Shown here: piece after piece, positions 23,128 through 37,429 of the stretch
Layout: each line of letters begins with the position of its first letter
Position numbering within the stretch: position 1 is the first letter of the stretch
Origin: an uncultured Desulfobacterales bacterium
Lineage (GTDB): Bacteria; Desulfobacterota; Desulfobacteria; Desulfobacterales; JAHEIW01
DNA length: 64,000 nt
NCBI GenBank assembly: GCA_947259495.1
Contig: CAMYLV010000014.1
Location: 13,761-77,760, forward strand
Direction: 5' to 3'
Made by a program: the position numbers and the translations under genes
Notes under the pieces: generated by a model
Databases searched by the model: none
What the model was told of the DNA's origin: nothing
What the model saw: the letters and a program-made list of their open reading frames with translations, nothing else

Positions 23128-23232
23128 GCTGCGTTATAAACCGATTCAAAATACTCGAATACTAACGTGTATACTCCGTTTTTGAATCGGTTTACGTCTT
23201 GCTCTCGAACATGATATGAGGCTCTAAAATCA
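23128..23232 (+). repeat. about 100-nt structured element (family R6), copy 1; candidate 3'UTR/sRNA hairpin
   Basis: A 15-bp perfect stem, taaaccgattcaaaa / ttttgaatcggttta, encloses a 28-nt loop containing ctc...tactaac.tgt...ctccg. It is homologous to 30686-30790. Confidence 0.55.
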
Positions 23233-23325
23233 CTTCTACACAATGTTGGCTATTATTTTACAAGAGGAATTATTCATTAAACATTTAAGCAGCAGTTTAA
23301 TCACAACCCAAATGGAATTAGCTGA

Positions 23326-23820
23326 ATGGTTTATCGCAAAACGGTTAAAGAAATTATCATTCTGGTGGGTGTTGCGGTGACACTGGCTTTGGTGGTTAAC
23401 TATCTTTCGCCAAAAGGTATTGCCCTGGTGGGACAGTGGGACACAGCCAAAGGCGTCATTACTGCCAATGCCACCAATGACGATGATTATCGCATTTCGG
23501 AAATCGACTGGATACCGGATGCCAGAAAAATATTTGATAACGGCGATACGCTTTTTGTGGACGCGCGTTCAAGGGATGACTATGAAAGCGGACACATCCC
23601 GGGAGCCATATCATTGCCAGTGGGCCAATTTAATGAACAGATTGAATCTTTCCTGAATCAATACCCACCTGATCAATCCATCGTTACCTATTGCTCAGGC
23701 CGAACCTGCGAAGACAGCCATCATCTGGCCCGGTTGCTCTCAGATGTCGGGTTCAGTGACGTACGGATTTTTATTGACGGCTTCCCGGGTTGGGAAGCGG
23801 AGGGATATCCGATTGAGTAA
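23326..23820 (+). CDS. membrane-anchored rhodanese-domain protein
   Basis: An N-terminal TM helix. The active-site loop is IVTYCSGRTCEDS, followed by GFPGWEAEGYP. Confidence 0.85.
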   Translation: MVYRKTVKEIIILVGVAVTLALVVNYLSPKGIALVGQWDTAKGVITANATNDDDYRISEIDWIPDARKIFDNGDTLFVDARSRDDYESGHIPGAISLPVGQFNEQIESFLNQYPPDQSIVTYCSGRTCEDSHHLARLLSDVGFSDVRIFIDGFPGWEAEGYPIE

Positions 23821-24289
23821 TTTAGGACAATCCATAATAAAAAACAGCTGGATCGAACTGGCGGCCCGTTGGATTCTGGGACTCATCTTTATTTATGCAA
23901 GTCTCCATAAGATTTTATCACCTGCGGATTTTGCCAAAATTGTTTACGGCTATGATCTTTTTCCGCATGTATTCATCAATCTGATTGCCATCATAATCCC
24001 GTTCCTGGAACTTATTGCCGGCCTGGCCCTGATCATTGGTGTTTATCCGCGCTCGGCTGCAATCGTCATTAACGGTCTGCTCCTGGCCTTTATGGCAGCA
24101 TTAACCATCAATCTGATTCGCGGCCATGAATTTGATTGCGGCTGCTTTTCCGCCGGCCAGAGCGGATATTCAAGCTCTACCAAAGTGACACTGGTACGGG
24201 ACGTCATCTATTTTGTGTTTGGTCTACAGATTGTTCTGTTTGAAGGTAATCGCAGAAGCTACTTTGGCCGACTCAATTCTCGGCATTAG
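23813..24289 (+). CDS. MauE/DoxX-family redox-associated membrane protein
   Basis: Four TM helices and the FDCGCF motif. A TTG start at 23813 follows GGAGGG and overlaps the rhodanese stop. Confidence 0.7.
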   Translation: MSNLGQSIIKNSWIELAARWILGLIFIYASLHKILSPADFAKIVYGYDLFPHVFINLIAIIIPFLELIAGLALIIGVYPRSAAIVINGLLLAFMAALTINLIRGHEFDCGCFSAGQSGYSSSTKVTLVRDVIYFVFGLQIVLFEGNRRSYFGRLNSRH

Positions 24290-24358
24290 CTTCAAATTCA
24301 TGTCAAACAGCACTGTGAGCCAGGCCGTCAGCTTTGGCAATATTAAATACAAAAATAG

Positions 24359-24399
24359 CAGGCAGAGGATATGACCCATTTCCTCTGCCTGTTTTTTTT
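24359..24399 (+). terminator. rho-independent terminator
   Basis: caggcagagga / tcctctgcctg is an 11-bp stem followed by T8. Confidence 0.8.
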
Positions 24400-24427
24400 A
24401 TTTGACAAAAAAATAAACTTATTTTAA

Positions 24428-24449
24428 TATTCAATTAATCTATTGAATA
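24428..24449. promoter_or_regulatory. candidate ArsR-type operator
   Basis: The palindrome TATTCAAT-taatct-ATTGAATA lies 15 nt upstream of the ArsR-rhodanese start. Confidence 0.5.
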
Positions 24450-24463
24450 ATTGAGGAAAAGGT

Positions 24464-25141
24464 ATGAAAAATCCAAACCGAGCGTTTAAAGATGCCATTT
24501 ATGAACAGTTTGCACGAATCGGAAAGGCCGTTTCCAGTCCGAAGCGACTGGAGCTTTTGGATCTGCTGTGCCAGGGCCCGCGAAGCGTCGAGGTTTTGGC
24601 CAAAGAGTCCAGCCTGACATTTGCCAATGCATCCCAGCATCTGCAGGTCCTGCGGGCATCCCGTCTGGTGGAGGCTGACAAAGAAGGCCTGTATGTCATT
24701 TACAGGCTTGCCGATCAAAACGTCTGTGAGTTTTTTCGGTCCATGCGGTTGCTGGCTGAAAGCAGATTGGCCGAAGTTGAGCAGATCAAACGCCGTTTCT
24801 TGGGGGGCAGAGAAGGGATGGAGCCGGTGGATTGCAAAAAACTTCTGAGGCTCCTGCGGGAAGGCGCCGTGACGGTTTTGGATGTCCGCCCGAGGGTAGA
24901 GTACAATGCCGGGCACATTCCCGGAGCCTTATCCATCCCCCTTAAAGAGCTGCAGCTGGGCCTGGCGGATTTGCCTCGCGATCAGGACATCGTGGCCTAC
25001 TGTCGGGGTCCATATTGCGTTTTATCCATTCAGGCTGTGGAAATGCTGCGTGCCCGGGGGTTCAAGGCCATCCGCCTTGAAGAAGGGATTCAGGACTTGC
25101 AGGCCATGGGGTTTCCGATCGCTGTTAACGAAGCAAGCTGA
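24464..25141 (+). CDS. ArsR/SmtB-family regulator fused to a rhodanese domain
   Basis: The wHTH SSPKRLELLDLLCQGPRSVEVLAKESSLTFANASQHLQVLR, followed by a rhodanese domain with the loop IVAYCRGPYCVLS. Confidence 0.9.
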   Translation: MKNPNRAFKDAIYEQFARIGKAVSSPKRLELLDLLCQGPRSVEVLAKESSLTFANASQHLQVLRASRLVEADKEGLYVIYRLADQNVCEFFRSMRLLAESRLAEVEQIKRRFLGGREGMEPVDCKKLLRLLREGAVTVLDVRPRVEYNAGHIPGALSIPLKELQLGLADLPRDQDIVAYCRGPYCVLSIQAVEMLRARGFKAIRLEEGIQDLQAMGFPIAVNEAS

Positions 25142-25231
25142 GCAGCAATAAATATTTACTGCTCAAACGAACGCGCGTGATCGTAACTTTCAAAAAAGAT
25201 TGTCCATAGGGACAAAAGGAAAGCTTGACCG

Positions 25232-26971
25232 ATGAGCGGTTTAAGAAAAGCTTTGCTGGCGCTGGCAGCCGTAGCGTTAACCGTGGGTTCCCTCTTGCAC
25301 GCGAATCAGGAGGTTGTTCCCAAAACAGCCACCTGGCAGGATGTGCTGACCGAGGCCAAGCAGGGCGATTACCGGATTATAGACACCGATAAATTATGGG
25401 ATCGCTATAAAAAAGATCCTGGAAAAACCCTTCTTGTGGACACCCGCCAGGAATGGGAATACCGAACCGGACACATCAAGGGCGCCCTCAATTTTCCGAT
25501 CGAGCCGACCTGGTTGTCGCGCTGGCGCAATAAAGGTGCACTGGGAAAATTTTTGGGGCCGGATAAGAATCGTTTCATCGTGTTTTACTGAGCGGGGCTG
25601 GCATGAGTCCGCAGCGACTCGGCGGCCCGGGTGGCCGTGACGCTGGGTTATAAAAACGTCTTGCGTGACCCCATGGGTTATCCGGAATGGCATGCCAGGG
25701 GTCTTCCCGTTGACAGCACCCCGGCCGGGCTTTCTGAGGTATCGCTAACACCCCAACAGTCAAGGCCCCTGCAGGGCTGGGGGATGATCTGGACGCTTCT
25801 GGGCATCTTTGCCGGCGGAATCGCCCTGAACCTGACACCGTGTATCTATCCTTTAATTCCAATTACGGTTTCCTTATTCGGCGGTCAGCGCTCTGAGAGC
25901 CAGCGAAAGCTGATGCTTCACGGGACCTGTTATATCGGCGGACTTGCGCTCACCAACTCGGTGCTCGGGGTGATTGCAGCCCTGACCGGTGGACTGCTGG
26001 GGAGTTTACTGCAACACCCGATGGTGCTCGCTCTGGTGGCTGCCGTCTTGATCTTTTTTGCCACCAGTCTCTTTGGACTCTGGGAAATACGCCTTCCATA
26101 CGCTTTATCAAAGATGGCTTCAAGGACTTACACCGGTTATTTTGGAAGCCTCTTCATGGGCCTGACATTGGGCGTGGTAGCCTCGGCGTGTATCGGCCCG
26201 TTCATTTTGGGATTGCTCACCTGGGTCGCCACCATCGGAAGCATATGGATCGCGTTTTTAATCTTCTTTACCTTGAGCCTCGGCCTGGGCTTACCTCTCT
26301 TTTTTCTGGCCCTGTTTTCCGGACAACTGAACAAACTTCCGCGTTCCGGTGAATGGATGCTGTGGGTCACGAAGCTTTTGGGTTGGATTCTGGTGGGCAT
26401 GGCTGCTTATTTTATTCAGCCGTTGTTACCTGAAACTGCAAAGATTTTCTTACTGGCAGCCGTCGCTTTAGCTGCGGCATTGCACCTGGGCTGGATCGAC
26501 AGGACTCGGGCCGGGTTCCGGGGGTTCGAGTGGCTTAGAACCGCTGCAGCCATCGTAGGCCTGATCATAGCGACTTTTCTTATCGGTTCATGGGTAATGC
26601 GAGGCCCCGGCGTGACCTGGCATCCCTACTCAGAGCAGGTATTGGCGGAAGCACAAAGATTGCAAAAACCGGTCATCATGGATTTCTATGCCGACTGGTG
26701 CGCCCCCTGCCGCGAGCTGGATGAAGTCACGTTTCATGATCCTGAAATCATCAAACAGGCGAAAAGCAATTTTACCATGATTAAGGTTGACTTAACCCGC
26801 AAAGGCAATCCGATTCACGAAAGTTTACTACGGCAATATGGAGTCAAAGGTGTGCCCACAGTTGTGTTTTTAGACCCTCAGGGAAAAGAACAGCGCGATC
26901 TGCGCCTGGTGGATTTTGTGCCCGCCGAACAATTTTTAATCCACATGGCAGAAATTAAGAAAACTCAATAA
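25232..26971 (+). CDS. periplasmic rhodanese - DsbD(CcdA) membrane core - thioredoxin fusion, read through two in-frame UGA codons (candidate Sec at 25589-25591 and 25604-25606)
   Basis: ORFs 25232-25591 and 25631-26971 share one frame. The rhodanese domain spans the gap as FIVFY-TGA-AGLA-TGA-VRSDSAARVAVTLGYKNV...GYPEWHARGLPV. Downstream are LNLTPCIYP, ASACIGP and a C-terminal WCAPC. There is an N-terminal signal peptide. Confidence 0.7.
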
Positions 26972-27163
26972 AAAAAGTACTTGAATTTGCACGAGTCGGA
27001 GGCTCGCCCAAAGGGTGAAAATTGATGAGATAAAAAGATTTTTATCCATTTTATTTGATAATTTATTAGTCTACTTCGCTGACTTGCTTAGACTGCTATT
27101 ATTAAGGTTATTAAAGCGTCTCATTAATTTTAATGCAAATTCAAGTCTTAAAAGGAGATGATC

Positions 27164-27427
27164 ATGCTGAAAATCAGATTTTTCATGAACCTGCCCAATG
27201 GAAAGCCATGAAAGCACTTTAAAAAAATGATGCCCAGGCTGGGTGAAAAATACGACATCGAGATTGAAACGATCGAAAAGCCAAAAGACGAGTATATGAC
27301 CGATGAATATTTTGAACTCGATCTGCCGGTTGCGCCTGCGGTTATGGTAGGCGATGAAATTGTTGTAGAAGGGACCGACGTTTCCAAAAAAAAACTGGAG
27401 GCGGCAATCAAGGCAGGCCTGCAATAA
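27164..27427 (+). CDS. small thioredoxin-fold protein (redox-active-disulfide-protein-2-like) with an in-frame UGA (candidate Sec at 27209-27211)
   Basis: GGAG lies 6 nt before the ATG at 27164. The translation is MLKIRFFMNLPNGKP-U-KHFKKMMPRLGEKYDIEIETIEK...APAVMVGDEIVVEG..., with the CxxC position reading GKPU. A hairpin cccaggcuggg lies 21-33 nt after the UGA. Confidence 0.55.
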
Positions 27428-27455
27428 TCCGTCTTTGTTAAAAAGGGGTAAACGT

Positions 27456-28202
27456 ATGGAAATTCAATTTACGACTAAAGACAAAAAATGGATTCAAAAA
27501 ACGATTAGGAAAACATATTCCAAAGCCGCTAAAAACCCTGGTGGCCTGTTTAGATATCCCACGGGCCATGAGGGACTGATGGCTTTAAAATATGATCCTG
27601 AACTCCTGCAGGCGTTACCGGCGGAAGTTGCCGCTTCATATTGCGGCGTGGGCAATCCCTTCACCTTAGGACCCATAAATGCAGGGGATGCTGTGCTGGA
27701 TGTGGGCTGCGGAGCCGGCGTCGACGCGCTTTTTTCAGCGATGCGGACGGGCCCTTCGGGAAAAGTGACGGGGATCGATATAACCCCTGCAATGCTTAAG
27801 CGGGCTCAAAAGAATCTTTCGATGACGGATTTAAAAAATGTCCGCTTTGAGGAAGGATCGGTTGAAAACCTGCCCTTTGCAGATGAAGTCTTTGACGTTG
27901 TAACCTCAAATGGGGCCTTAAACCTTATCCCCGACAAAACCAGGGCCTTTGGTGAGATCTACCGCGTTTTAAAATCAGGTGGACGCCTGATGGTCGCAGA
28001 CGAAATTCTAATCGGTGAATTGCCCACGGAAAAAAATAAAATAATTAAAAGCTGGGCTCAGTGAGAGGGCGGGGCAATACCGGGAAAGGATTTCCTGGCA
28101 ATGCTTCAAAAGGTTGGGTTCAAAACCCCCGAGCTGGTTGCTAAAACGGGATTTAACAGCTCACCCAAAACAGAGGGCGTATTGATTCGTGCGATAAAAT
28201 AG
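27456..28202 (+). CDS. ArsM-like SAM-dependent methyltransferase with an in-frame UGA (candidate Sec at 28062-28064)
   Basis: SYCGVGNPF and VLDVGCGAGVD motifs. Reading through gives ...KSWAQ-U-EGGAIPGKDFLAMLQKVGFKTPELV...-TAG at 28200-28202. In ArsM-type enzymes a Cys sits at this spot (yaGCiaGA...aGF). A hairpin ccgggaaaggauuuccugg lies 17-35 nt after the UGA. Confidence 0.65.
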
Positions 28203-28417
28203 ACCAAAAAATTTCGTCGAAAAGCCTGACAACAATCTTGCCAGACGAACAAGTTGTATTCACATCAATTATTAACACCCAATTCACATATCTGAATCAA
28301 CCTTTTAGGCTATAAATAAACGCCAGTGGTCAATTAAACCAGGGCCGAAGTTTGAAATATGAAGCGCCTGTGCTGATAGGACGTTTTTTAAAGCAATCAT
28401 ATTTCCGATATACTTAA

Positions 28418-35401: not shown

Positions 35402-36655
35402 TCAGTTACGGCGCGAATCGGAAGAGCCATCGCAGTTGGGGCAACAATCGGACACCACCGGCAGCGGTTCAGCCAGCGTTTTTTCAGTCTCAGATATGGT
35501 CTCTTCCTGCTTTGGTGCCGGTTTGAAGCGCGCCCACAGCGCATTCCAGATGGGTTTAACCGACATCGCCAGAATCATCAGCGCACCGATCACCCCCACC
35601 CAATGCGGCACAATTTCTGAAGCCTGGCCCACTACTGCCTGGGCCGATATCCCTAACGATGCATATACCTGATCAACGATTAAACCAAAACCAACGGCAC
35701 AGACCGCAATGGATGCCAGGTAGATGGCGGTGGCCCGCTTGCCCAGCACACCGGTCAAGACCGTTAAGGAGGCGATATTGGTGGCCGGCCCGGCTAAAAG
35801 GAAAACCAGAGCTGCACCGGGGCTGACGCCTTTAAGAATCAGGGCCGCGGCAATGGGTGTTGAGGCCGTTGCACAAATATATAATGGGATACCGACCGCC
35901 AGCATGATCAGCATGGCCGGAAGACCGGAGCCCAGATATTTACCGAACATATCCGGCGGGATCAGCACTGTAATCAACCCGGCCAATATCATTCCAATCA
36001 TAAACCAGCCAGCCAGATCATCCCAGAGATCATCGACGGCGAAGCGCATACCGGCGGCAAGCTTCTCCCCAAAGGTGTGATGCCGGCGATGCTCTTCAGG
36101 CGAACAGTTTTCTCCGTCGCAGCAGCCATCCACCGGGCAGTTCAGATCCGGGGTGATGCGGGTCGTTTCGCTTTTCGGACCCAAAAGGTTTTCGGTAATG
36201 CCGGCAACCGCCGCGGTAATAAAAGCCACCACCGGACGCGCGACGGTCATGATGGGATCCAAAAGGGCATAGGTGATCGAAATGGAATCCACCCCGGATT
36301 CGGGGGTTGAAATCAAAAATGCGGTGGTGGCGCCATTGTTGGCGCCCTGTTTGCGCAGCGACACGGCTGCGGGCAGCACGCCGCATGATCACAACGGAAT
36401 CGGAATGCCAAAAAAAGCGGATTTCAGGACGGATTTAAAGCGACCCTGTCCCAGGTGTTTGGCAATCGAACTGGGATTTAAAAAAACCCGCAAAAGCCCG
36501 GCCACCAACAACCCGAACAAAATGTAAACCGAAGCGTCAACCAGTAAATCCCATGTAGCCAGTAAAATATCGATAATAAAATTCAAGTTCTTATACCTTT
36601 TTATGTAATCAAAACACTTTGCGCTATGCTCTATTTCCCGCGGAGAACACAGCAT
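35402..36655 (-). CDS. SO_0444/COG0701-type metal(loid) permease with an in-frame UGA (candidate Sec at 36389-36391)
   Basis: ORFs 36389-36655 and 35402-36379 share one frame. Read-through gives FGIPIPL-U-SCGVLPAAVSLRKQGANNGATTAFLISTPESGVDSI, where family members have PLCSCG. Cys/His-rich loops are present (CPVDGCCDGENC, CCPNCDG). A hairpin cgcagccgugucgcugcg lies about 18-35 nt after the UGA. Confidence 0.7.
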
Positions 36656-36687
36656 ATCGGAAAAAGGCCTGTTTAGGCATCGAAAAA

Positions 36688-37062
36688 TTACTCTGAGACG
36701 TGCTCCAGCCCTACATTCAACAACTCCGCCACGTGCTCATCATCCAGCGAATAATAGATCACCTGACCGTCGCGGCGGCTTTTGACCAGGGCCAGATCGC
36801 GGAAGCGCCGTAATTGGTGTGACACAGCCGACTCGGTCAGCCCTAAAAATGCAGCCAGGTCACAGACGCACATTTCCACATTTTTGAGCGCCATAACGAT
36901 TTTCAGACGGCTGGGATCACCCAGGATCTTATAAATCGAGGACAGACGTTCAATTTCTTTCGCTGATACGGTTTCCCTGCGCGCCTGCTCGACGCGGTCC
37001 AGATGGATCACGCGAACCTGGCAGTCATCCCCGTCTAAACATTTGGCTTTTGCAGATCCCAT
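36688..37062 (-). CDS. ArsR/SmtB-family metalloregulator
   Basis: LGDPSRLKIVMALKNVEMCVCDLAAFLGLTESAVSHQLRRF. AGGAG lies 6 nt before the ATG at 37062. Confidence 0.9.
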   Translation of the reverse strand: MGSAKAKCLDGDDCQVRVIHLDRVEQARRETVSAKEIERLSSIYKILGDPSRLKIVMALKNVEMCVCDLAAFLGLTESAVSHQLRRFRDLALVKSRRDGQVIYYSLDDEHVAELLNVGLEHVSE

Positions 37063-37072
37063 TTCCACTCCT

Positions 37073-37094
37073 TGAATATATGAACATATATTCA
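37073..37094. promoter_or_regulatory. candidate ArsR operator
   Basis: A perfect 9-4-9 palindrome, TGAATATAT-gaac-ATATATTCA, lies immediately upstream of the RBS. Confidence 0.55.
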
Positions 37095-37429
37095 TTTAAC
37101 CTTTCTATACACGTTTGTCAAGCCTTAACGATCCGTAATGGGTTTCTATGTTCTTAAAACTTTCGAAAAGGGAAAAAGTAGCTGTTCACACTGAAAGCGA
37201 GGCCAATAAACTTCTTAACCACATAGAAATATACATAAAAATTTCCAGACAAAATCTTTGCTCAAATCTTCGGTTTATCATTGATTTCCCCCATCCAACG
37301 TGTTATTGCCTCGCCAACCATTTCACCTCTCAGGTAGATTCTCGACTCTGATTTTTAATCCAGCCATACAAAAATGGTAATCAACTAAAATTTATAGTGA
37401 TTATAGTGGTTTTCTTATAAAACAAGCAC

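Follow-up and report, generated by a model that had tools for sequence, protein, structure and literature searches.

The core genes of the locus studied here, tsoB and tsoC, are those of a described selenoprotein system, the Tso operon ("three selenoprotein operon"; Haft & Tolstoy 2025, as cited in PMC13188914), which is named in PMC13188914 together with its families TsoB and TsoC. This review already counts ArsM-like methyltransferases and SO_0444 transporters with selenocysteine (Sec) among the known selenoproteins and links metal resistance to many new ones. We analyzed a 64,000-nucleotide stretch of DNA from an uncultured Desulfobacterales bacterium (the window), in which an NCBIfam profile search identified the fourth gene of a cluster as TsoB (NF045694, 997 bits against a cutoff of 805, full-length match) and the fifth as TsoC (NF045708, 149 bits against a cutoff of 45). 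The original prediction had not recognized the gene set as a described system, a view that no longer holds, since both proteins fall into families that NCBIfam curates for the Tso operon. TsoA and TsoR were not found in the window. On balance, and with moderate confidence, we read the locus as a variant form of the Desulfobacterales Tso selenoprotein operon in which TsoB would work in a DsbD-like manner.

The predicted elements were all present, namely 7 genes, 3 rhodanese loops, a terminator, a palindrome, and 4 in-frame TGA codons, and profile matches agreed with the domain assignments. The starts of MauE (23813), TsoC (27164), and the methyltransferase (27457) differ from those of the longest open reading frames (ORFs). 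All 3 rhodanese domains carry CxGxxC or UxGxxU loops, and selenoproteins make up 3 of the 4 operon products: TsoB with 2 Sec residues and TsoC and the methyltransferase with 1 each.

The first gene encodes Rhd1 (23326..23820, + strand; Pfam Rhodanese, 68.4 bits), a membrane-anchored rhodanese with an N-terminal transmembrane segment and, from its charge distribution, a predicted N-in, domain-out orientation. Its loop, YCSGRTC, is of the Cys type, with both loop Cys encoded by TGY in 12 of 12 orthologues, and its best NCBIfam match was the N-terminal domain of TsoB. The MauE/DoxX-family membrane protein that follows (23813..24289, + strand; PF07291, 93.1 bits; PF07681, 36.3 bits) contains the motif FDCGCFSAG. 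Its likeliest start, the TTG at 23813 with GGAGG ahead, gives an 8-nt overlap with the Rhd1 stop, which suggests translational coupling, and the overlap is kept in relatives. An intrinsic terminator at about 24357..24399 (+ strand; -27.1 kcal/mol, z = -7.92, followed by U8), as stable as which none of 200 shuffles proved, closes this unit. Between Rhd1-MauE and the remaining genes, relatives carry 0.7 to 1.5 kb of extra genes; what lies between MauE and the regulator varies among them and includes HMA/CopZ-like and BFD-like ORFs (NF041115 metal-binding (seleno)protein, 36.8 bits), and no HMA genes were found in the window. Rhd1-MauE was identified only in close relatives, within a general synteny block (WrbA-Pirin ... 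dn168-dn109), and a complete genome with an 84%-identical regulator (L161) lacks the pair beside it. Because the strong terminator and the extra genes in relatives split off Rhd1-MauE, the 7 genes do not form a single unit, and the pair, judged from these signals to be a separate transcription unit, would represent a neighboring periplasmic thiol-redox pair.

The third gene (24464..25141, + strand; HTH_5 and Rhodanese) encodes a repressor of the ArsR/SmtB family with a fused rhodanese domain, the loop of which reads YCRGPYC. It scored 68.7 bits with NF033788, above the cutoff of 55, but only 43 bits with the TsoR profile (cutoff 115) and 33 bits with the BigR profile (cutoff 155). C36, C88, C180, and C185 were invariant in 22 of 22 orthologues, and Cys36 and Cys88 appear to lie off the BigR/SqrR positions. 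Upstream is a sigma-70-type promoter, TTGACA-17-TAATAT (24402..24430, + strand; 10/12 consensus match), the -35 TTGACA of which is kept upstream of orthologous regulators, with the predicted palindromic operator TATTCAAT-N6-ATTGAATA (24428..24449, + strand) over the -10 box. The palindrome is perfect and has 1 exact copy in the window; its half-sites recur upstream of approximately 20 orthologous regulators, down to 69% regulator identity and with diverged flanks, as well as upstream of a Cys-TsoC operon (L169). This conservation supports the operator and the ArsR-type regulation proposed earlier. The repressor, with its rhodanese as a putative sensor domain for an effector, would act on its own promoter by binding the 8-6-8 palindrome that overlies the -10 box and thereby control arsR-rhd, tsoB, tsoC, and, in this lineage, the ArsM-like methyltransferase gene. 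The regulator does not have a CVC metalloid site, whereas a second ArsR of the window does (CVCDL motif). The latter precedes an SO_0444-family Cu/Zn efflux transporter (35402..37095 for the operon, - strand; 425 bits, cutoff 300) with a UGA at 36389-36391 on the minus strand (PL-U-SCG), and this operon is related to the Tso cluster in theme only.

In-frame TGA codons were located at 25589, 25604, 27209, and 28062 in the cluster, and we compared codons in as many as 91 related loci. The 2 TsoB codons (25589-25591 and 25604-25606, + strand) were TGA in 48/48 and 50/50 orthologues, respectively, the TsoC codon in 89/89, and the methyltransferase codon in 21/21, and the Cys codons of both Cys-type rhodanese loops were always TGY. 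Paralogues or homologues have Cys at positions aligned with the Sec sites; for the first U of TsoB, this is the catalytic Cys in solved rhodaneses. Downstream of each Sec codon lies a conserved hairpin that carries GG at its apex. In tsoB, the SECIS hairpin GCGGCC-CGGGU-GGCCGU (25622..25638, + strand) has its loop 21 nt past the second UGA and 36 nt past the first. Across 45 distinct sequences, 98.9% of its cells were paired, with compensatory changes at 2 pairs, and synonymous-codon entropy had its gene-wide minimum at codons 124-136 (0.40-0.59 bits; mean 1.35), coinciding with the hairpin. The candidate minimal SECIS of tsoC, GCCCA-GGC-UGGGU (27232..27244, + strand), is nearly invariant in 71 sequences (ATGATGCCCAGGYTGGG), with G-U changes that keep the pairs; at -6.5 kcal/mol, short of the -7.5 that the bSECIS model sets as its limit, this hairpin is weak, and it has no compensatory pair. 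The methyltransferase hairpin CCGGGAAA-GGA-UUUCCUGG (28080..28098, + strand) hardly varies among proteins of 53-98% identity, one-sided changes preserving the pairs, and the 64-nt segment 28062-28125, which includes an outer stem around it, folds at -16.8 kcal/mol. In loop size, loop G, and spacing, the hairpins agree with the bSECIS model, which calls for 3-9 nt in the loop, G within the first two of these, and 16-37 nt of spacing.

The predicted Sec-recoding sites, including a fifth, were confirmed, with TGA conservation, hairpins, and Cys alignment bearing on the 4 cluster sites, which on this comparative evidence are genuine Sec codons. The idea that the TGA genes are pseudogenes, or that TGA is a sense codon (Trp or Gly) in this organism, is effectively refuted, although database entries give W at the TsoC site and a search of the window found neither tRNA-Sec nor sel genes. 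The W forms derive from short contigs and are expected if these were translated with a code reading TGA as Trp. Each TGA is conserved with frames intact on either side across proteins of 53-99% identity, full-length HMM matches span the TGAs, the SECIS hairpins are conserved at the genes that contain them, homologues have Cys rather than Trp at the aligned sites, and many ordinary genes in these loci terminate with TGA.

TsoB (25232..26971, + strand) is a rhodanese-DsbD_TM-Trx ORF that comprises, in order, a signal/anchor, a rhodanese domain (U120-x4-U125, with the Sec loop reading FY-U-AGLA-U-VRS), a DsbD transmembrane domain (C204, C320), and a thioredoxin domain (C490-A-P-C493). DsbD_TM matched over its full length (134.8 bits) with Trx domains alongside, and the DsbD model matched residues 178-576. 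None of the 6 redox residues varied among 41 orthologues (55-99% identity), which upholds the predicted role of TsoB as a DsbD-like transmembrane electron conduit. As in DsbD, cytoplasmic reducing equivalents would cross the membrane via the Cys pair C204/C320 and then reach the periplasmic thioredoxin domain (C490/C493), which would reduce a U120-U125 diselenide in the enlarged active-site loop of the rhodanese domain. The diselenol may in turn reduce or capture thiophilic envelope species, with sulfane sulfur, polysulfide, or a selenium analogue as the likeliest candidates.

TsoC (27164..27427, + strand) is a small cytoplasmic thioredoxin-fold selenoprotein of 87 aa with the motif N-L-P-N-G-K-P-U and a UGA at 27209-27211. 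Cys-forms exist, and the AF2 model (pLDDT 83.5) of a Cys homologue with 71% identity gave thioredoxins, a glutaredoxin, and ArsD as best fold matches; TsoC also matches the MTH895/ArsE family weakly. With its single Sec at the N-terminus of helix 1 of the thioredoxin fold, TsoC could be the cytoplasmic partner, as donor or carrier. Thioredoxins reduce DsbD through their N-terminal Cys, which TsoC lacks, making the donor role doubtful. A 168-bp insert with perfect 13-bp inverted repeats at its ends (26979..27146, no strand) separates tsoB from tsoC, is present only in the window and L081, and lies outside the system.

The ArsM-like SAM methyltransferase selenoprotein (27457..28202, + strand; Methyltransf_31, 118 bits) starts 29 nt past tsoC with no terminator between, and intergenic gaps within the operon are short. 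Matches to NF041536, NF041537, and NF047649 covered their N-terminal 248 aa, and none of the three reached its cutoff. The earlier description of an ArsM-like enzyme with U at its conserved Cys stands as to the residue: the UGA at 28062-28064 (SWAQ-U-EGGA) falls at the CmArsM Cys224 position and, in a PDB alignment with solved ArsM, opposite the Cys of "GECLAGA". It stands less well as to the family, with 201 bits against the ArsM cutoff of 263 and Gly in 21/21 orthologues in place of C174, the second essential As(III)-binding Cys. The enzyme further departs from ArsM in lacking an N-terminal Cys and in the placement of its remaining Cys, which is displaced by 2 residues.

Gene order was conserved to a limited extent. 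TsoB lies directly upstream of TsoC in 61 of 66 loci, TsoC occurring without TsoB in the other 5 and also in Cys-forms, and the ArsR-rhodanese is upstream of TsoB in 19 of 33 evaluable loci. The methyltransferase follows TsoC in 17 of 62 loci and is absent from 45, some close relatives included, which makes it a facultative neighbor that may act as an optional downstream module. The proposed 7-gene unit therefore reduces to TsoB-TsoC, the only robust linkage, with Rhd1-MauE in general synteny behind the terminator. It is possible, though we think it unlikely, that no common pathway exists and that TsoB-TsoC and the regulator are the only unit, the methyltransferase, Rhd1-MauE, and other Sec genes being clustered by a selenoprotein island or lineage synteny. 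The confinement of Rhd1-MauE to conserved flanking genes (WrbA, Pirin, dn168, dn109), its absence from L161, the variable content between MauE and the regulator, and the patchy methyltransferase would all fit. However, the methyltransferase gene closely follows tsoC, the unusual C/U-x-G-x-x-C/U loop is common to all 3 rhodanese domains, and lineages of 53-67% identity repeatedly carry ArsM-like Sec genes next to Tso, at varied positions, so simple inheritance is insufficient.

The original prediction suggested that the substrate could be S(0), Se, Te, or As. Substrate readings other than sulfur draw on the ArsR-family regulators, the ArsM-like enzyme, the ArsD fold match, the HMA/CopZ-like ORFs of relatives, and the MMPL exporters. 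Metalloid (As/Sb/Te) detoxification, in which the ArsR-type regulator senses, TsoB reduces or binds in the periplasm, TsoC is an ArsD-like chaperone, and the Sec methyltransferase methylates for volatilization, seems to us improbable. It would suit the ArsR/SmtB regulator, the enzyme's closeness to ArsM-type families and solved ArsM structures with U at the Cys224 equivalent, the ArsD and MTH895/ArsE matches of TsoC, and the ArsM-like genes that recur at differing positions near diverged Tso loci (L013, L103, L134, L147), but the departures from ArsM described above, the absence of the methyltransferase from most loci, the missing CVC site of the regulator, and the failure to find arsB, acr3, or arsC in the cluster argue against it. 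Handling of soft metals (Cu/Hg/Zn/Cd), with Sec residues as metal ligands, TsoC as a metallochaperone, and TsoB keeping periplasmic selenols reduced for metal binding, has a still smaller chance of being correct: the HMA/CopZ-like and BFD-like ORFs occur in relatives and not in the window, the cluster has neither a metal-binding domain nor an exporter, rhodanese domains and a methyltransferase are unexpected in metal efflux, and canonical Tso loci have sulfur-relay neighbors instead. Consistent with it are the SO_0444 Cu/Zn exporter with Sec 8 kb away, MMPL exporters adjoining TsoC in L010, L167, and L168, and the link of new selenoproteins to metal resistance (PMC13188914).

The Tso reading, with sulfur or a related chalcogen as substrate, is also consistent with the neighbors of related loci, where GcvH-related, TusE/DsrC, and TauE-like proteins in canonical Tso loci, TauE, DsrE, and NIR_SIR beside Cys-TsoC, and an SQR-like gene in L010 point to a sulfur/chalcogen theme. 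Compared with DsbD, the 6 redox residues of TsoB are laid out as in the electron cascade, with the periplasmic rhodanese domain standing where the DsbD alpha domain would be. Compared with the described Tso operon, an ArsR-rhodanese fusion stands where TsoR and TsoA would be, and this variant with a rhodanese-fused regulator is common.

We identified seven genes, all co-directional on the forward strand (23326-28202), and the elements observed there in the original prediction (genes, rhodanese loops, in-frame TGAs, terminator, and palindrome) were all found in the window by ORF, Pfam, and fold analysis. Rhd1 (23326-23820), with 1 N-terminal hydrophobic segment and a rhodanese domain (Pfam, 68 bits), precedes a MauE/DoxX membrane protein (PF07291, 93.1 bits against a gathering score of 27), whose start, from its sequence context, is most probably the TTG at 23813, with GGAGG in front and an 8-nt overlap with the Rhd1 stop. 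MauE is probably translationally coupled to this rhodanese partner. An intrinsic terminator (-27.1 kcal/mol, z = -7.9, then U8) lies 3' of MauE, and between it and the regulator gene is a promoter, TTGACA-17-TAATAT, whose -10 box is overlapped by the perfect palindrome TATTCAAT-N6-ATTGAATA (24428-24449). The ArsR-rhodanese fusion (24464-25141; Pfam HTH_5 and Rhodanese) is followed by the 579-codon frame of tsoB (25232-26971), with Rhodanese, DsbD_TM (135 bits, full length), and thioredoxin domains, by the 87-codon frame of tsoC (27164-27427), with no Pfam match, and by a class-I methyltransferase (27457-28202, Pfam). The rhodanese loops read YCSGRTC in Rhd1, YCRGPYC in the regulator, and Y-U-AGLA-U in TsoB, and in-frame TGAs occur at 25589 and 25604 (tsoB), 27209 (tsoC), and 28062 (methyltransferase). 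Rfam gave no match at gathering thresholds across the whole window, a permissive Rfam search of 23200-28400 returned chance matches to the terminator hairpin only, and a tRNA scan of the window found none.

Between tsoB and tsoC lies a 168-bp insert (26979-27146) ending in perfect 13-bp inverted repeats (ACTTGAATTTGCA / TGCAAATTCAAGT). It was present in the window and in contig L081 (Ga0265303_10000535) only, the latter from the same species as the window, with 88-100% protein identity in the cluster and flanking genes; relatives have 20-100 nt at this place, and no further copies were identified elsewhere in the window. The insert could be a MITE-like element.

The core of the cluster belongs to the Tso ("three selenoprotein") operon, TsoR-TsoA-TsoB-(GcvH-related)-TsoC (Haft & Tolstoy 2025, mSystems 10:e0141724, as summarised in PMC13188914), for which NCBIfam models NF045707/045695/045694/045708 exist. 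TsoB matched NF045694 with 997.4 bits (cutoff 805; model positions 2-572 of 572), and TsoC matched NF045708, "NEPxGxxU motif selenoprotein TsoC," with 149.2 bits (cutoff 45), its motif in the window being NLPNGKPU. The 2026 review lists TsoA (LULAxC), TsoB (UxxxxU), TsoC (GxxU), TsoX, and TsoY, and its table of known selenoproteins includes arsenite methyltransferase (UxxG), SO_0444-type transporters, and ArsM/DUF2284, ArsM/AhpD, and methyltransferase/UXPK-star fusions (PMC13188914). The view that this gene set was undescribed thus fails for the core, as TsoB and TsoC are curated Tso families and both ArsM-like and SO_0444 selenoproteins are covered by that review. As far as can be told from the review's account of the original Tso paper, the locus is a common Tso variant that carries no name. 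The system was first described in 2025, and its genes are known from comparative genomics only.

We read the TGAs of the cluster as selenocysteine codons, as originally proposed, on 4 lines of sequence evidence. The codon census drew on 80 metagenome loci anchored on TsoC and on species-representative genomes, which gave 11 loci with full-length TsoB, and the seed pattern of the metagenome scan held no Sec codon, so that it carried no bias to TGA. In orthologues 53% to 99% identical to the window protein, varying by protein, TGA occupied TsoB positions 120 (48/48) and 125 (50/50), TsoC position 16 (89/89), and methyltransferase position 203 (21/21), and the loop Cys codons of Rhd1 and the regulator were TGT or TGC without exception. 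Cysteine counterparts were found for all 3 proteins: in alignments, the first TsoB U falls on the catalytic Cys of both paralogues and of solved rhodaneses, the U of the methyltransferase falls on the "GECLAGA" Cys of solved ArsM, and TsoC has natural Cys forms such as NEPNGKPCKHF. NCBIfam profile matches span the TGAs at full length. Taken with the SECIS hairpins, this conservation led us to reject both a pseudogene reading and one in which TGA is an ordinary sense codon. Database "W" forms of TsoC came from short contigs and fit, as expected, translation with a code in which TGA specifies Trp. The selA/selB/selC/selD machinery of the host would be implied by the numerous conserved Sec genes only.

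Bacterial SECIS elements are modeled as a hairpin 16-37 nt from the UGA with an apical loop of 3-9 nt, a G at loop positions 1-2, and an MFE <= -7.5 kcal/mol (PMC13188914). Hairpins with the hairpin, loop, and spacing features of this model follow the UGAs of all 3 genes, with loops readable as NGGNU 21-25 nt 3' of the UGA, the MFE being marginal for tsoC. The tsoB element, GCGGCC-CGGGU-GGCCGU (25622-25638), has a 6-bp stem; in an alignment of 45 distinct sequences, 98.9% of cells are paired, and 2 pairs carry compensatory changes. Its loop is spaced 21 nt from UGA2, whereas the spacing from UGA1, 36 nt, is close to the upper limit of the 16-37 nt range. Codons 124-136 have the lowest synonymous-codon entropy of the whole tsoB gene (0.40-0.59 bits vs a mean of 1.35). 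The 2 Sec codons of tsoB, 15 nt apart (25589, 25604), are accompanied by this single covarying hairpin. Another hairpin (25592-25612), which contains UGA2, was considered as the own SECIS of UGA1 and rejected, having no compensatory changes, 1 pair broken in 16 of 45 sequences, and a loop just 8 nt from UGA1. Two UGAs so close together with apparently 1 SECIS are useful for defining the spacing limits of SelB-dependent decoding, and this arrangement is, along with the operator, the feature of the locus most directly open to testing. The methyltransferase element, CCGGGAAA-GGA-UUUCCUGG (28080-28098), has its GGA loop 23 nt from the UGA, and the 64-nt segment tested folds at -16.8 kcal/mol; it is almost invariant, with one-sided changes that retain pairs. 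The nucleotides of the tsoC hairpin, GCCCA-GGY-UGGGY (27232-27244), are nearly invariant in 71 sequences; in the window its loop is GGC, 25 nt from the UGA, and at -6.5 kcal/mol it is energetically marginal against the -7.5 limit.

None of the 91 loci held a Cys-form TsoB, and matches in Ignavibacteria and Bacteroidota taken as candidate Cys-type rhodanese-DsbD fusions proved to be ordinary DsbD with the usual alpha domain. Public gene calls (loci L161-L164 and protein records P0121-P0240) split TsoB into a 119-aa rhodanese ORF and a DsbD-type ORF of 241-401 aa, and TsoC records in the same set are cut to 65-66 aa or place Trp at the Sec site. This makes database counts and annotations unreliable for both families, and the Tso family is under-counted in metagenome annotation.

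The DsbD-like electron conduit proposed in the original prediction was borne out in TsoB, whose DsbD_TM domain matched PF02683 with 134.8 bits (positions 2-218 of 219). Six residues were invariant in 41 of 41 full-length orthologues, namely U120 and U125 in the rhodanese loop, C204 (LTPCIYP) and C320 (SACIGP) in DsbD_TM, and C490 and C493 (WCAPC) in the thioredoxin domain. A signal-like N-terminal segment (MSGLRKALLALAAVALTVGSLL) precedes the rhodanese domain, and the established topology of DsbD, transferred to TsoB, would make both soluble domains periplasmic. By analogy, TsoB most likely reproduces the beta-to-gamma-to-alpha cascade of DsbD with a rhodanese replacing alpha. Its active-site loop is 2 residues longer than that of solved rhodaneses (FYC-GGG--FRS vs FYU-AGLAU-VRS), which places the second Sec 5 residues beyond the catalytic one, and we infer that U120 and U125 form a diselenide/diselenol couple.

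For the fold of TsoC, a natural Cys homologue (71% identical) was modeled with AF2 (pLDDT 83.5). The model has a thioredoxin-type fold (beta-alpha-beta ... beta-beta-alpha) with the nucleophile in the first turn of helix 1, at the place of the C-terminal Cys of CxxC, and a Gly at the place of the N-terminal Cys, leaving a single nucleophile. Its best PDB matches were thioredoxins, a glutaredoxin, and the arsenic chaperone ArsD (TM 0.55-0.7, E ~2e-3). On this model, a carrier or chaperone role would suit the single nucleophile no less than that of a classical reductant. Genes for Cys-form TsoC adjoin 2 TauE genes, 2 DsrE genes, and a sulfite-reductase-like gene in locus L165; an ArsR-rhodanese, a CCG/Fer4 protein, and MMPL in L169; and ArsR, MMPL, and a methyltransferase in L167. 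In a few cases, Sec-form TsoC occurs as a solitary gene. The order at L165:5183-9104 is TauE, a TsoC-like copy, DUF8269-TauE, Cys-TsoC, and 2 DsrE-type genes, one of them with a faint DrsE_2 match only; the TsoC-like copy, called as truncated, is probably a Sec form. This order indicates that TsoC-type proteins recurrently pair with membrane proteins of different families.

The methyltransferase is, by sequence, ArsM-like rather than ArsM. The assignment as an ArsM-like enzyme with U at the conserved Cys holds at the Cys224 place, whereas the score is below the ArsM cutoff (NF008823, 201 bits vs 263) and Gly stands at C174. The enzyme aligns with the N-terminal 248 residues of fusion families NF041536, NF041537, and NF047649, in each case below the family's own cutoff. 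Relative to CmArsM, C224 is replaced by U and C174 by Gly in 21 of 21 orthologues, the counterpart of C72 is offset by 2 residues, and no Cys occurs before residue 63, so no C44 equivalent exists; we take C44, C72, C174, and C224 to be the numbering of the As(III)-binding Cys set in CmArsM. In several ArsM-like orthologues (loci L083, L085, L087, and L094), ...IRAQKI is directly followed by a TGA that may be the stop or a further Sec codon; the window copy ends in TAG.

The regulator scored above the ArsR/SmtB HTH_5 threshold (NF033788, 68.7 bits against a cutoff of 55; PF01022, 33.6 bits) and belongs to a family of at least 7,999 clusters at E <= 1e-20. Four Cys were invariant in 22 of 22 sequences: the DNA-binding domain has two of them (C36 and C88), and the rhodanese loop has the other two (C180 and C185). 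A BigR-like identity was rejected on the NF040642 score, 33 bits (cutoff 155), and on the Cys residues, whose positions (C36/C88) presumably differ from those in BigR. The palindrome at 24428-24449 is the sole exact copy in the window, and no second operator was found there for Rhd1-MauE or the downstream genes, the one further match having 3 mismatches and lying inside the Rhd1 coding sequence. The -35 box TTGACA and the half-sites ATTCAAT/ATTGAAT are kept in ~20 loci with regulator identity down to 69% and diverged surroundings, and from these alignments we regard the palindrome as a phylogenetic footprint. The same palindromic motif precedes an ArsR-rhodanese and Cys-TsoC operon without TsoB in L169. 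On the simplest reading, the repressor is autoregulated and takes its signal through the rhodanese domain. This sharply defined, conserved operator offers a handle for finding the inducing species and is among the most directly testable features of the locus.

Conservation of the full seven-gene order in relatives was not borne out. In a sample enriched for relatives of the window, which biases the frequencies, TsoB lay directly 5' of TsoC in 61 of 66 evaluable loci, but an ArsM-like gene occurred within 1.5 kb downstream of TsoC in 17 of 62 loci, and Rhd1-MauE was tied to flanking synteny. Upstream of TsoB, the same sample had the ArsR-rhodanese in 19 of 33 evaluable loci, TsoA (with TsoR) in 8, and another gene in 6, making the ArsR-rhodanese form, not canonical TsoR-TsoA, the commonest one among the sampled marine and sediment Desulfobacterales. 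Several close relatives whose synteny is otherwise kept (L091, L095, L096, L101, and L105) lack the ArsM-like gene, which also occurs near Tso genes at other positions in diverged lineages, as an AhpD-like fusion (L013, L103, and L147) or, in L134 (12832-13575), with a UXX-star-like C-terminus, GSGUKK*. Rhd1-MauE adjoins the operon only where WrbA, Pirin, dn168, and dn109 are also conserved, lies 0.2-1.5 kb from the regulator with differing content in between across loci, and does not accompany an 84%-identical regulator in locus L161 of a complete genome; only its position connects it with the Tso genes.

Other relatives show rearrangements and additional genes. At L013:6022-8570, two 383-aa ORFs, identical over at least the first 60 residues and probably IS copies, split TsoR-TsoA from an ArsM/AhpD-TsoB-GcvH-TsoC block, so the canonical Tso operon can be broken up. 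A gene of ~180 codons with an in-frame TGA in SPTCPL-U-RDQG (CxxU) lies between MauE and the regulator at L007:2440-2982 and recurs in L001, L008, L082, L088, L100, L109, and L123; it is absent from the window, has no NCBIfam family, and may represent an uncurated selenoprotein family. It is adjoined at L001:8013-8384, and in homologues, by an HMA and BFD-like ORF whose match to NF041115, "metal-binding (seleno)protein," starts at model position 24; the N-terminal metal-binding motif may lie upstream behind more TGA codons.

A second ArsR-linked operon is encoded on the reverse strand (35402-37095), with an ArsR bearing a CVCDL metal site and, downstream, an SO_0444-family Cu/Zn efflux transporter. 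The predicted fifth recoded UGA was confirmed here as a TGA at 36389-36391 (reverse strand) in PL-U-SCG, where the usual motif is PLCSC; read through this codon, the transporter has a full-length score of 425 bits (cutoff 300) and is of a known selenoprotein type.

Two sets of indirect signals, which point in different directions, bear on the substrate. Sulfur or chalcogen chemistry is indicated by the 3 rhodaneses and by TusE/DsrC, DsrE, TauE, SQR-like, and GcvH-related neighbors, and metals or metalloids are indicated by the ArsR family regulators, the ArsM-like enzyme, and the ArsD-like fold match, together with HMA/CopZ-like ORFs in relatives, MMPL exporters, and the nearby Sec-containing Cu/Zn exporter. 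The substrate is most likely, at low confidence, a thiophilic chalcogen (sulfane sulfur or selenium) handled in the envelope. We consider it improbable that the ArsR-rhodanese, TsoB, TsoC, and Sec-methyltransferase make up a dedicated pathway for a chalcogen (Se, Te, or zero-valent S). In such a pathway, the diselenide-bearing periplasmic rhodanese would capture or reduce the species with electrons from the DsbD-type conduit, cytoplasmic TsoC would carry it on 1 selenol, and the Sec-dependent methyltransferase would then methylate it. The regulator would sense the same species by a relay from its own CxGxxC rhodanese to Cys36/Cys88, and its fused rhodanese would take over the function that the Sec protein TsoA has in the canonical operon. 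Of the original prediction, the gene parts, the DsbD-like logic, and the 7 co-directional genes stand, and the undescribed seven-gene pathway does not.

The canonical operon in locus L004 has the order TsoR (156.6 bits, cutoff 115), TsoA (225 bits, cutoff 170), TsoB, a GcvH-related protein (NF045810), and TsoC, after which come a membrane protein without an NCBIfam match and then, on the opposite strand, TusE/DsrC and another membrane protein; by our own reading, we take the former membrane protein to be DedA-like and the latter TauE-like. Like the Tso operon, the window keeps the U-x4-U and G-x-x-U motifs, the order TsoB then TsoC, an ArsR/SmtB-type regulator upstream, adjoining genes for extra, unrelated selenoproteins, and a host within Desulfobacterota. 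It differs in having a single ArsR-rhodanese fusion instead of TsoR and TsoA, and no GcvH-related gene: the L[UC]LAxC motif of TsoA was absent from all 6 frames of the window, tblastn of the window with L004 TsoA gave no match, TsoX (HSGNPxU), the GcvH-related protein, and DsrC were likewise absent there, and the regulator, with 43.3 bits on the TsoR model (cutoff 115), is not a TsoR, which is a Dbac_1936-type ArsR. The third selenoprotein is the ArsM-like methyltransferase, and the operator is distinct from the AT-rich ATATAAAT-type palindromes of TsoR loci.

The regulator resembles YgaV-YgaP of E. coli in associating an ArsR/SmtB winged-helix repressor with a rhodanese, and solved YgaV and YgaP chains were both among the structure matches. 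Shared with YgaV-YgaP, BigR, and SqrR are conserved Cys in the DNA-binding domain and a palindromic operator over the regulator's own promoter; unlike YgaV-YgaP, the pair is fused in 1 polypeptide with a CxGxxC rhodanese loop. As in MauE-MauD, of methylamine dehydrogenase maturation, and in the DoxX-SseA-SodA membrane oxidoreductase complex of M. tuberculosis (PMC6930017), a MauE/DoxX protein is encoded with a thiol-redox or rhodanese-type partner, which here is a membrane-anchored CxGxxC rhodanese outside any methylamine dehydrogenase or SodA context. The methyltransferase shares with ArsM the Rossmann SAM-methyltransferase core and has U at the Cys224-equivalent "C-x-x-G-A" (UxxG), and it differs from the Sec ArsM-like fusion families in standing alone, without DUF2284, AhpD, or a UXPK tail. 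TsoB shares with DsbD/ScsB/CcdA a transmembrane domain with 1 essential Cys per half, a C-terminal thioredoxin domain (WCAPC), and an N-terminal domain with a third redox pair, both soluble domains being predicted periplasmic, in the order alpha-like, beta, gamma. On the DsbD model NF001419, it scored 258 bits against a cutoff of 330, over residues 178-576 only. In the ordinary DsbD homologues recovered by the same scan, the alpha domain is still immunoglobulin-like, whereas the alpha position of TsoB is a rhodanese fold with a Sec-Sec redox pair, making TsoB a rare DsbD-type conduit that ends in a Sec-Sec redox center.
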